Below are positions 7,595 to 9,157 of a stretch of DNA of 64,000 nucleotides, one piece after another. The stretch is from Escherichia phage vB_EcoM_JQD51. A program made the position numbers and the translations under genes. The DNA lies in sequence record PV204681; one strand, given 5' to 3'. Within the stretch, counting starts at the first letter, position 1, and each line of letters opens with the position of its first letter. The notes beneath the pieces were generated by a model. It ran no database searches. It was not told the DNA's origin and saw only the letters and a program-made list of their open reading frames with translations.

Positions 7595-8165
7595 AAAAGT
7601 TTCGGATTTGTTCCCAATTCAGAGAACGAAGATTATTACGAGAGTACTGAATTACTTCAATACCAGCTTGTTTTAGAATGTCTGCCCAATTTTCAGGAGA
7701 TCTGTCATATAATTCTGCGTATACAACCTTTTTAATACCTGACTGCGTAATAGCTTTAGTGCAATCAGGACACGGAGAAAGCGTCGTATATAACGTAGCA
7801 CCTTCAATAGAATTACCTTTACGAGCTGCAAACAAAATTGCATTCAATTCAGCATGGATTTCGTTATTAGCAGACCATGCACTATGAGCGGCCCGATGTT
7901 CTTTAGCCAAAACAAAATTATCCACCCGTCCAAATGCTGTAGTGCCTTCTTTATGTCCAGCAACGATGACCGGGCTTGGTTTATTCTTCAACCAACCATT
8001 TTCAGATGCATGTTCGCAACAGTTAACGCCACCTGCAGGTGAACCGTTATACCCAGTAGAAATAATGCGCCCATCTTTTTCAATGACTGCGCCAACTTTC
8101 CATGAACAACATTTTGATTCTTGAGAAATCAGATATGCAATCTGAAGGTATGTGCTAGCTTTCAT
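7584..8165 (-). CDS. cd: dCMP deaminase
   Basis: 193-aa ORF (T4 Cd is 193 aa); zinc-binding HAE and PCxxC deaminase motifs. Confidence 0.92.
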   Translation of the reverse strand: MKASTYLQIAYLISQESKCCSWKVGAVIEKDGRIISTGYNGSPAGGVNCCEHASENGWLKNKPSPVIVAGHKEGTTAFGRVDNFVLAKEHRAAHSAWSANNEIHAELNAILFAARKGNSIEGATLYTTLSPCPDCTKAITQSGIKKVVYAELYDRSPENWADILKQAGIEVIQYSRNNLRSLNWEQIRNFCGE

Positions 8166-9157
8166 TATTGAACCTTATTAATATAAGTTAACAGCTCTTT
8201 AGTTTGTTCCCAACTGATGCACGCATCGGTAACGGAAACGCCATAGGACATATTATCAGAAATTTTTTGATTTCCTTCATGTAGGAATGATTCTATCATA
8301 ATTCCTTTGACCAAATCATTAGCTGCTAAATTTTTACCAATACCAATTTGATTGCTATAATGACCATCAGCGTTTGCATGGCTACAGTCAACCATTACAT
8401 AATGATTCAGACCTACTGCCCTTGCTTTGTTAGAAGCTTCTTGAATATCAGAAGAATGATAGTTCGGGCCGTTGGTCCCGCCACGCAATACGATATGCGT
8501 ATTCTGATTACCTTCAGCTTCAACAATGCCTACAGTACCATCGACGTCCATACCCATATACCGATGAGGCCAGGCGGCACTATACATCGCGTCTGTAGCT
8601 ACTTTAATAGAACCATTGGTTGCGTTCTTGAAGCCTACGCACATCGGTAGACCTGAAGCAATTTCACGATGTGTCTGACTTTCAGTCGTACGGGCGCCAA
8701 TAGCAACCCATGAGAAAATACCAGAAAGATACTTAATCGTGAATGGGTCTAATACTTCAGTTGCTAATGGAAGTCCCATACGTAGAAGTTTACGACACAA
8801 TGTTCGTGCAACTATAAGACCGTGGTTCATATCAAAACTTCCGTCAAGATATGGATCATTTACAAGACCTTTCCAACCTACGGTAGTTCGAGGCTTTTCA
8901 AAATAAACGCGCATCACTAACAAAACATTAGGAAGACGAGTTTGAAGTTCAGCCAGACGTTTGCCGTATTCAACAGCAGCAATAGGGTCATGAATTGAGC
9001 AAGGACCTACAACAATAAGTTTGCGTGGGTCTTCACCGTTCATAATCGAATTAACTTGTTCGCGATGAGAAGCCACTTGTGATGCGTAAGCTTCCGACAA
9101 AGGAATAATCTCAGCCAGTTCTTTTGGAGAAATAAGTTTTCTGATGACAGGTAACAT
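8165..9157 (-). CDS. 3-deoxy-7-phosphoheptulonate (DAHP) synthase, class I-alpha (AroG/AroF/AroH-like)
   Basis: 330-aa ORF; [65 protein letters not shown] all align with E. coli AroG; start/stop overlaps cd. Confidence 0.88.
   Translation of the reverse strand: [330 protein letters not shown]

Follow-up and report, generated by a model that had tools for sequence, protein, structure and literature searches.

A type I-alpha DAHP synthase gene ahead of the dCMP deaminase gene in Escherichia phage vB_EcoM_JQD51: a replaced inhibitor pocket and a possible tie to DNA hypermodification

Introduction

Why should a T4-like phage carry the entry enzyme of the shikimate pathway among its nucleotide-metabolism genes? 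The question is raised by a stretch of 64,000 nucleotides from Escherichia phage vB_EcoM_JQD51 (record PV204681; this whole stretch is referred to below as the window), which belongs to Mosigvirus and is 99.3% identical to Escherichia phage F2 over 25 kb. Directly ahead of the dCMP deaminase gene cd lies an open reading frame (ORF) of 330 aa. An initial annotation, made from the letters of the window, had read it as a class I-alpha DAHP synthase (DAHP is the 7-phosphate of 3-deoxy-D-arabino-heptulosonate), the enzyme that condenses phosphoenolpyruvate (PEP) with erythrose 4-phosphate (E4P). We asked whether this identity holds, what has become of the feedback control of the enzyme and where its product might go. 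The protein is a metal-dependent type I-alpha DAHP synthase by family, fold and residues. Its inhibitor pocket is replaced throughout a phage clade, and we propose, tentatively, that it serves the supply of prephenate for hydroxylation of cytosine in phage DNA.

As an annotation the synthase gene is not new. It appears in GenBank and RefSeq under the names DAHP synthase, AroF/AroG or phospho-2-dehydro-3-deoxyheptonate aldolase, and it is mentioned in passing in two genome papers. The protein in the window is 100% identical to AWM11733.1 of phage NBG1, and with some 200 phage records and a family of its own, PHROG 5045, the novelty that the initial annotation implied falls away. The existence of an annotated phage auxiliary gene changes nothing by itself. 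In the literature that we searched, which excluded He et al. 2026 and Mahler et al. 2025, we found no experiments on any DAHP synthase from a phage, nor any description of its rebuilt regulatory pocket or of a link from it to U32 proteins and prephenate. Both the pocket and the link are therefore offered here as leads and not as established facts.

The background to the second lead is as follows. Mosigviruses replace cytosine with arabinosylated 5-hydroxycytosine; each cytosine bears one to three arabinoses, and the sugar is made from ribulose 5-phosphate by way of a phage arabinose-5-phosphate isomerase (PMC13326640). The phage 5-hydroxy-dCMP synthase known from the literature is flavin-dependent and derives its oxygen from O2, and the same paper makes no mention of U32, prephenate or chorismate and gives no U32 for DLP3 in its Table 1 (PMC13326640). 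RlhA, a U32 protein of E. coli, makes 5-hydroxycytidine in 23S rRNA; it needs Fe-S assembly, and its function requires aroB, D, E, A and C together with chorismate mutase, that is, the shikimate route to prephenate (PMC5727448). TrhP, also of the U32 family, makes 5-hydroxyuridine in tRNA in a prephenate-dependent and O2-independent manner and is paired with the O2-dependent TrhO (PMC6599085), while UbiU/V are O2-independent Fe-S hydroxylases (PMC6747719).

Results

The ORF runs from ATG to TAA on the minus strand, and all of the motifs quoted in the initial annotation were found again in its translation. The match to the family lies far beyond chance. Pfam DAHP_synth_1 (PF00793) matches the 330-aa protein with E=5.2e-75 (252 bits, cut-off 25.5) over profile positions 8-269 of 270, NCBIfam TIGR00034 aroFGH with 428.5 bits (cut-off 173.2), PRK12755 with 455.9 (cut-off 343) and PHROG 5045, phospho-2-dehydro-3-deoxyheptonate aldolase, with E=2.5e-182 over residues 1-330. 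Among solved structures E. coli AroF matches best (6agm, E=4e-105, residues 8-327), and identity amounts to 51.1% with AroF, 47.4% with AroG and 43.8% with AroH. Scores remain below the equivalog cut-offs of the AroG model NF006723 (364.5, cut-off 568) and the AroH model NF009396 (386.7, cut-off 463). An AlphaFold model, for which 53 homologues served as input, has a mean predicted local distance difference test (pLDDT) value of 90.6. Foldseek aligns it with 4hso, 8e0u, 1kfl and 1qr7 at template modelling (TM) scores of 0.94-0.96 and root-mean-square deviations of 1.5-1.7 A. The model comprises a TIM barrel together with the N-terminal helices and the beta6a/beta6b hairpin from which AroG builds its regulatory site.

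Residues were compared in an alignment of homologues, 25 from the phage clade and 98 from bacteria. The metal ligands of the phage synthase are C53, H260, E289 and D311; the corresponding Cys61, His268, Glu302 and Asp326 of AroG do not vary in any of the 25 phage or 98 bacterial sequences. Its PEP and E4P residues are R83, K88-P89-R90-T91, R156, K177 and R225. In AroG numbering, the PEP ligands Arg92, Lys97, Gly163-Ala164-Arg165, Lys186 and Arg234 and the E4P phosphate loop Lys97-Pro98-Arg99-Thr100 are likewise invariant across the phage and bacterial sequences. Loss of the metal- and PEP-binding residues would have spoken against the initial annotation; all are kept. Conservation of this kind strongly indicates that the phage enzyme is competent to make DAHP from PEP and E4P. 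The other product that had been considered for it, a sugar-acid precursor, gains no support, the KPRT/E4P loop being unchanged.

The N-terminus had been thought to be some 20 residues shorter than that of AroG. Alignments reduce this to 8-9 residues relative to AroG and AroF (residue 4-8 pairs with AroG/AroF residue 12-17), and a longer N-terminus is impossible because no start codon lies between the ATG at 9157 and the in-frame stop ahead of it. The total deficit against AroF, AroG and AroH is 20-26 residues, the remainder falling to two deletions inside the protein and to a C-terminus that is also shorter.

The regulatory site has diverged while the catalytic site has not. The pocket for aromatic amino acids, which takes Phe in AroG and Tyr in AroF, contains when intact Pro150, Gln151, Ser180, Phe209 and the acidic or Asn residues 6-8 of the N-terminus, and this set is not retained in the phage synthase, which carries P150I, Q151K, D155G, S180P and F209Y (AroG numbering). 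In its own numbering the rebuilt pocket is made of I141, K142, G146, I166, P171, Y200 and G202. The same replacements run through the clade: Gln151 (98/98 bacterial sequences) is Lys or Arg in 25/25 phage sequences, Ser180 (97/98) is Pro in 25/25, Phe209 (97/98) is Tyr in 25/25, Pro150 (91/98) is Ile in 24/25 and Asp155 (95/98) is Gly in 24/25. The equivalents of Asp6 and Asp7, present in the bacterial enzymes, are deleted in 25/25.

Changes at several of these positions make the E. coli enzymes feedback-resistant. In AroF, the N-terminal changes N8K and deletion of Ile11 relieve inhibition. P150L makes AroG fully feedback-resistant, and S180F, F209A/S, L175D, L179A and V221A also confer resistance; Gln151 takes part in inhibition and its alteration confers feedback resistance, and the side chains of Ser180 and Ser181 touch the main chain of the inhibitor (reviewed in PMC9529685). 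Since the residues that contact the inhibitor are replaced across the phage clade, insensitivity to Phe and Tyr is likely. The feedback insensitivity suggested in the initial annotation is thus plausible by way of Pro150, Gln151, Ser180 and Phe209, although the N-terminal argument on which it was based was quantitatively wrong. Moreover, the derived residues are near-invariant at a mean column identity of 70% for the clade, which suggests that the pocket is constrained in a new state and is not decaying. A new effector for it is possible.

The canonical P-Q-D-S-F set persists in some 70 further viral DAHP synthases of IMG/VR, which come from giant-virus metagenome-assembled genomes (MAGs) and large phage contigs. 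Many contigs assigned to giant-virus MAGs encode DAHP synthases of ~650-680 aa, and the one that was scanned has a C-terminal prephenate dehydratase fusion (Pfam PDT E=8e-17) together with a canonical feedback pocket. A pocket partly similar to that of the phage clade, P-N-H-P-Y, which includes S180P and F209Y, is found in the synthase of IMG/VR contig 3300028829_003504 (261.8 kb), whose gene is flanked by a topoisomerase-IB-like gene and one for thymidylate kinase, with a NUDIX gene nearby. This contig was considered as independent support for a tie to DNA modification and set aside, as neither U32 nor a ThyA homologue nor chorismate mutase was found within 10 kb.

To what else is the clade tied? 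The 5-hydroxycytosine cluster of these phages includes a Peptidase_U32 protein, gp50 of RB69 (2493..3662 of one RB69 stretch; Pfam E=7.4e-11). It matches the UbiU model weakly (E=9e-4) and keeps the equivalents of Glu161 and Cys169 of RlhA, with the second cysteine of the motif displaced. Two clusters of cysteines are invariant in it, C195-x10-C206-x5-C212 and C343-x4-C348-x3-C352-x2-C355. Judged by these motifs, the phage U32 has the look of an Fe-S hydroxylase akin to RlhA, TrhP and UbiU and not of a protease. Between genera it is 79-89% conserved. The window itself contains no U32 gene; its nearest relative F2 carries one.

Co-occurrence was judged from organism-level counts and from the intersection of IMG/VR contigs. 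Counted by the organism word of the phage record, synthase and U32 were matched, respectively, in 124 and 136 records for Escherichia, 25 and 26 for Klebsiella, 12 and 14 for Shigella, 7 and 7 for Proteus, 6 and 7 for Serratia, 4 and 4 for Enterobacter and 3 and 3 for Edwardsiella. Among whole-genome IMG/VR contigs with the synthase, 8/8 carry U32, and 7/15 of the U32-bearing contigs are without the synthase. On both counts the T4-like synthase clade occurs only in phages with the 5-hydroxycytosine/U32 cluster.

A second enzyme of the same pathway stands inside that cluster. In 50 phage records an AroQ chorismate mutase of 79-114 aa is encoded between the genes for U32 and for 5-hydroxy-dCMP synthase, a ThyA homologue. 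One copy lies in Enterobacter phage Entb_45 (6170..6409 of the stretch examined). The mutase matches Pfam CM_2 with E=2.4e-10 and bears the name chorismate mutase in the automated 'Protein Homology' annotation of its record. Where U32-bearing lineages were checked for both genes, synthase, mutase or both were present in all but RB69. We considered whether RB69 ORF049c (gp49, 79 aa), beside U32, might be a divergent chorismate mutase; BLASTP, Pfam and NCBIfam revealed no similarity, and Yersinia and Pectobacterium phages carry a gp49-like ORF plus a separate chorismate mutase, which rules this candidate out. ORF049c-like proteins form a family of 57-79 aa with the motif ...YY.DAF.HS..G.I.AE..R.IN..K, encoded directly downstream of U32 in Mosigvirus, in Yersinia and Pectobacterium phages and on one uncultured contig.

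The hosts of Acinetobacter phages are strict aerobes. The modification cluster of these phages is otherwise homologous to that of the U32-bearing phages, and 57 of their records contain the arabinose-5-phosphate isomerase, but Acinetobacter is not among the leading organisms of the match lists for U32 and chorismate mutase. The synthase does have matches in four Acinetobacter-named records; the contig examined among them, 13 kb long and with 47.6% identity, falls outside the T4-like clade. Klebsiella phage Marfa presents another variant of the cluster: homologues of RB69 gp45-gp53 are found within its 14-44 kb stretch, with the 5-hydroxy-dCMP synthase at 80% and U32 at 89%, and the isomerase is absent. 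The sugar of Marfa, or the source of it, may differ from the RB69 type.

With regard to history, a tblastn search with the phage synthase matched 212 phage records, 139 of them at 95% identity or more (Mosigvirus) and about 55 at 57-77%, from phages of Klebsiella, Enterobacter, Edwardsiella, Serratia, Erwinia, Proteus and Providencia. T4-like phage records number >1,000 in total, and ~200 of them contain the synthase. A neighbour-joining tree drawn for the top 120 homologues in the database groups the 25 sequences from phages (319-343 aa) in one clade, bacterial homologues reach at most ~55% identity, and the GC content of the gene is 41% in a window of 37.8%. Taken together, these features argue against recent capture from a host. 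Between genera dN/dS is 0.15-0.27, with dS saturated, and the gene differs from that of NBG1 by 6 synonymous and 0 non-synonymous changes. A survey of T4-like genomes, which the initial annotation had suggested, places the gene at the same location between pseT and cd in five genera (Kanagawavirus, Marfavirus, Winklervirus, Bragavirus and Mosigvirus), with 0-2 small ORFs separating it from cd; at ten IMG/VR loci cd starts 3-640 nt downstream of the synthase. We read the synthase as an old, vertically inherited phage gene under purifying selection, in a clade confined to Straboviridae.

The features of the locus are collected in Table 1. On the minus strand the genes follow in the order pseT, three small ORFs, cd.2, a 41-aa ORF, the DAHP synthase gene, cd, a 31.1-like ORF, gene 31 and rIII. 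As the initial annotation had noted, this is where T4 holds small cd.x ORFs: cd.1 fills the slot between cd.2 and cd in T4, and the synthase gene stands in the corresponding slot here. The overlap of its stop codon with the start of the deaminase gene was also seen again, the TAA (8167..8165) and the ATG of cd sharing one base in TAATG (8167..8163). The nucleotide and folate genes td and frd lie at 18.5-20.3 kb of the window.

Table 1. Coordinates of features at the synthase locus of the window
Feature	Position	Strand	Remarks
dCMP deaminase gene cd, 193 aa	7584..8165	-	ATG at 8165..8163
Right copy of 19-bp direct repeat, ATAATGAAAGCTAGCACAT	8150..8168		start of cd
DAHP synthase gene, type I-alpha, 330 aa	8165..9157	-	ATG (9157) to TAA (8165)
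1,095-bp block with 41-aa ORF and synthase gene	8169..9263		absent from RB69
Shine-Dalgarno sequence AAGGA	9163..9167	-	5 nt ahead of synthase ATG; overlaps stop codon of 41-aa ORF
41-aa ORF, PHROG 15876	9166..9291	-	in the same 1.1-kb block as the synthase; annotated in phage NBG1
Left copy of imperfect 19-bp direct repeat, ATAATGAGAGCTATCTCAT	9263..9281		16/19 bases as in right copy
cd.2 homologue, DUF7320, 78-aa ORF	9278..9514	-	65% identity to T4 Cd.2
Early-promoter-like site, TTTACA, 17 nt, TACTAT, with TG	9543..9571	-	matches annotated T4 early promoter

An early-promoter-like site lies ~390 nt upstream of the synthase gene. It reads GGTTTAC...GAGTTGTGATACTATA and is near-identical to the T4 early promoter stretch between cd.3 and cd.2 (5290..5330, minus strand), GGTTTAC...GAGTTGTGATATTATA. 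A promoter scan gave 20 sites where 18.8 are expected by chance, and because this is not above chance the call rests on homology to T4 in position and sequence. The promoter is conserved between T4 and Mosigvirus almost base for base, despite the difference in the genes downstream (cd.1 in the one, the 41-aa ORF and the synthase in the other). No terminator-like site was seen on the minus strand from the promoter-like site to cd. From the conserved promoter, the lack of such a site and the TAATG overlap we infer early co-transcription of the synthase with cd.2 and cd, with cd.2 as the probable first gene of the transcript, and translational coupling to cd. Expression with the early nucleotide-metabolism genes, as first suggested, is thereby made more probable.

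RB69, a member of the same genus, is without the 1,095-bp block, the flanks of which are 96-97% identical; the corresponding site is 8237..8255 of a second RB69 stretch. The block is bounded by the two repeats of Table 1, an arrangement that suggests a deletion by short-homology recombination between them, or an insertion. Since RB69 does without the gene, the synthase is dispensable in the laboratory. The RB69 dCMP deaminase (7743..8252 of this second stretch) reads 169 aa and ends in ...ILKPSWY*, against 193 aa in the window and in T4; the shortening stems from a frameshift or a truncation close to the C-terminus, which may be one of the sequencing errors already reported for the RB69 record.

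Discussion

We suggest the following account. The synthase would be transcribed early, from the T4-type early promoter upstream of cd.2, and its translation coupled to that of dCMP deaminase. In a gut host, aromatic amino acids both inhibit AroF, AroG and AroH and repress their synthesis. A feedback-blind phage enzyme could keep carbon flowing into the shikimate pathway while these are shut down, and the host enzymes AroB to AroC would turn the DAHP into chorismate. The main use of the product would be as prephenate, with the phage chorismate mutase helping where it is present, and prephenate would feed a U32-dependent, O2-independent hydroxylation, an anaerobic alternative to the flavin- and O2-dependent 5-hydroxy-dCMP synthase. 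The supply of prephenate is suggested because the U32 enzymes RlhA and TrhP are prephenate-dependent, O2-independent pyrimidine C5-hydroxylases. The rewiring of chorismate flux envisaged in the initial annotation is thereby narrowed, probably, to prephenate for the U32-linked 5-hydroxycytosine pathway. We put the probability of the whole account, that is, of a competent, early and feedback-insensitive synthase that mainly supplies prephenate to DNA hypermodification, at roughly 0.4. Activity, timing of expression and insensitivity to feedback are, like the destination of the prephenate, deductions from sequence, and the destination is the least certain step among them.

A more specific form of this account assigns the chemistry itself. 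The phage U32 might hydroxylate C5 of (deoxy)cytidylate, or of cytosine in DNA, consuming prephenate and needing no O2, with synthase and mutase as its dedicated supply; we regard this as doubtful. If it were true, T4-like phages of facultative anaerobes would own a complete anaerobic bypass, parallel to TrhO/TrhP and UbiIHF/UbiUV of the host. With ~64,000 cytosines per phage genome, the demand would by a rough estimate come near the shikimate flux of the whole cell, and for this reason the entry enzyme would be phage-encoded and deregulated.

Several observations weigh against the supply of prephenate to DNA modification. RB69 makes arabinosyl-5-hydroxycytosine without the synthase (PMC13326640), and the synthase gene lies ~100 kb away from the modification cluster. 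Chorismate mutase is undetectable in Mosigvirus, the genus of the window, and is also absent from Marfa; Yersinia and Pectobacterium phages hold U32 and chorismate mutase without the synthase. The tree of the synthase, that of cd and the identities of U32 are congruent, and one ancestral acquisition may therefore explain the co-occurrence. The strongly conserved pocket could take a different effector instead of none. The role of the phage U32 is read from its motifs, and one paper gives for it only 'sugar or heterocycle reductase'. Lastly, we found no biochemical or genetic data on any phage DAHP synthase in the searchable literature.

The main rival is a general supply of aromatic compounds, in which the deregulated synthase is a generic auxiliary metabolic gene that lifts Phe, Tyr and Trp, and possibly p-aminobenzoate (pABA) and folate for thymidylate, with no tie to hypermodification. 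Such a supply is the textbook role of DAHP synthase, and it would agree with an intact catalytic site beside a lost feedback pocket, with neighbours that include nucleotide and folate genes (cd; td and frd) and with the placing of the family among auxiliary metabolic genes in PHROGs. Copies fused to prephenate dehydratase in giant-virus MAGs point, in those viruses, to Phe synthesis, and a generic role has been proposed for a Klebsiella phage (PMC11845039). A general benefit, however, ill fits a gene found in ~200 of >1,000 T4-like genomes, all of them of 5-hydroxycytosine/U32 lineages, and it leaves unexplained a chorismate mutase within the DNA-modification cluster. In addition, the terminal branches at PheA, TyrA and TrpE remain feedback-controlled. 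Deregulation of the first step should therefore mainly lift chorismate and prephenate, not the amino acids. This explanation remains credible, even if we think it somewhat unlikely.

The synthase may still be allosteric, its rebuilt pocket taking another ligand: prephenate, chorismate or a nucleotide, for example, or else a protein of phage or host. The fixation of I141, K142, G146, P171 and Y200 in 24-25/25 sequences at 70% overall column identity speaks for this, as does the regulatory beta6a/beta6b hairpin kept in the AlphaFold model. The same conservation may equally mean packing of the dimer or tetramer, and a sequence cannot reveal a ligand; we consider allosteric control by a new ligand unlikely. 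It is compatible with supply of prephenate and does not exclude it.

Less likely again is that the enzyme acts as a sink for E4P and PEP, whereby irreversible removal of E4P draws transketolase and transaldolase toward the pentose phosphates and so provides ribose and the ribulose 5-phosphate for UDP-arabinose. Extra pentose is needed where ~64,000 cytosines per genome each bear one to three arabinoses (PMC13326640). The gene is grouped with nucleotide-metabolism genes, with which it is probably co-expressed, and the isomerase is also present in most synthase-bearing genera. Nevertheless, as a test of service to arabinose supply, co-occurrence with the isomerase (RB69 gp55) fails in both directions. 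About 22 or more Klebsiella phages, Marfa included, have the synthase without the isomerase, whereas RB69 and the 57 Acinetobacter phage records have the isomerase without the synthase, save for the four records that match it weakly and fall outside the T4-like clade. Such a sink also lacks a precedent, and we keep it as a rival of low probability.

A changed substrate, as in a KDO8P-synthase-like enzyme acting on arabinose 5-phosphate or another sugar-acid synthase, or a non-enzymatic, decayed relic is very improbable: KDO8P synthase does share Pfam PF00793 and these phages do make arabinose 5-phosphate, but neither the E4P loop nor any PEP or metal residue varies, and all of them agree with AroF/G/H, the NCBIfam matches are to DAHP synthase models only, with no KdsA model among them, and the gene is under purifying selection.

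What follows if prephenate is indeed the destination? Cases in which a phage rewires central biosynthesis to supply a co-substrate of DNA hypermodification are rare, and this would be one; it would also address how gut phages could hydroxylate cytosine without oxygen. The nesting of the synthase in 5-hydroxycytosine/U32 lineages, together with the mutase of the cluster, offers a testable account of two unexplained genes, the synthase and the 'peptidase' gp50. Natural and long-fixed substitutions in the feedback site could matter in their own right, for strains that produce aromatic compounds and for the study of allostery in the type I-alpha family.

Compared with AroF, AroG and AroH of E. coli (6agm, 1kfl, 1qr7), the phage synthase is alike in its fold, its metal, PEP and E4P residues, its N-terminal helices and its beta6a/beta6b hairpin; it differs in being 20-26 residues shorter, in missing the first 8-9 residues, in the replacement of its inhibitor contacts and in forming its own clade. 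It is substituted at the same positions as the engineered or selected feedback-resistant AroG and AroF variants (P150L, S180F, F209A and changes of Gln151), but the phage changes are natural, multiple, evolutionarily fixed and of another chemistry (Ile, Lys, Pro, Tyr). The DAHP synthases of giant-virus MAGs and jumbo phages are also of type I-alpha with intact catalytic residues, and differ in their canonical P-Q-D-S-F pocket, in the prephenate dehydratase fusions of some and in having no linkage to cd or pseT. As to RlhA, TrhP and UbiU/V, the phages with the synthase also encode a U32 protein in which the Glu/Cys motif is partly kept and additional Cys clusters occur, and their DNA base is 5-hydroxycytosine; the phage U32 is, however, distant (Pfam E=7e-11) and is without the DUF3656 domain of RlhA. 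The closest counterparts are those in other T4-like phages (JS09, F2, NBG1, HY126, Marfa, CHI14, Entb_45 and Proteus PM2), where an orthologous or identical protein is encoded in the slot between pseT and cd, and of which the window holds another copy.

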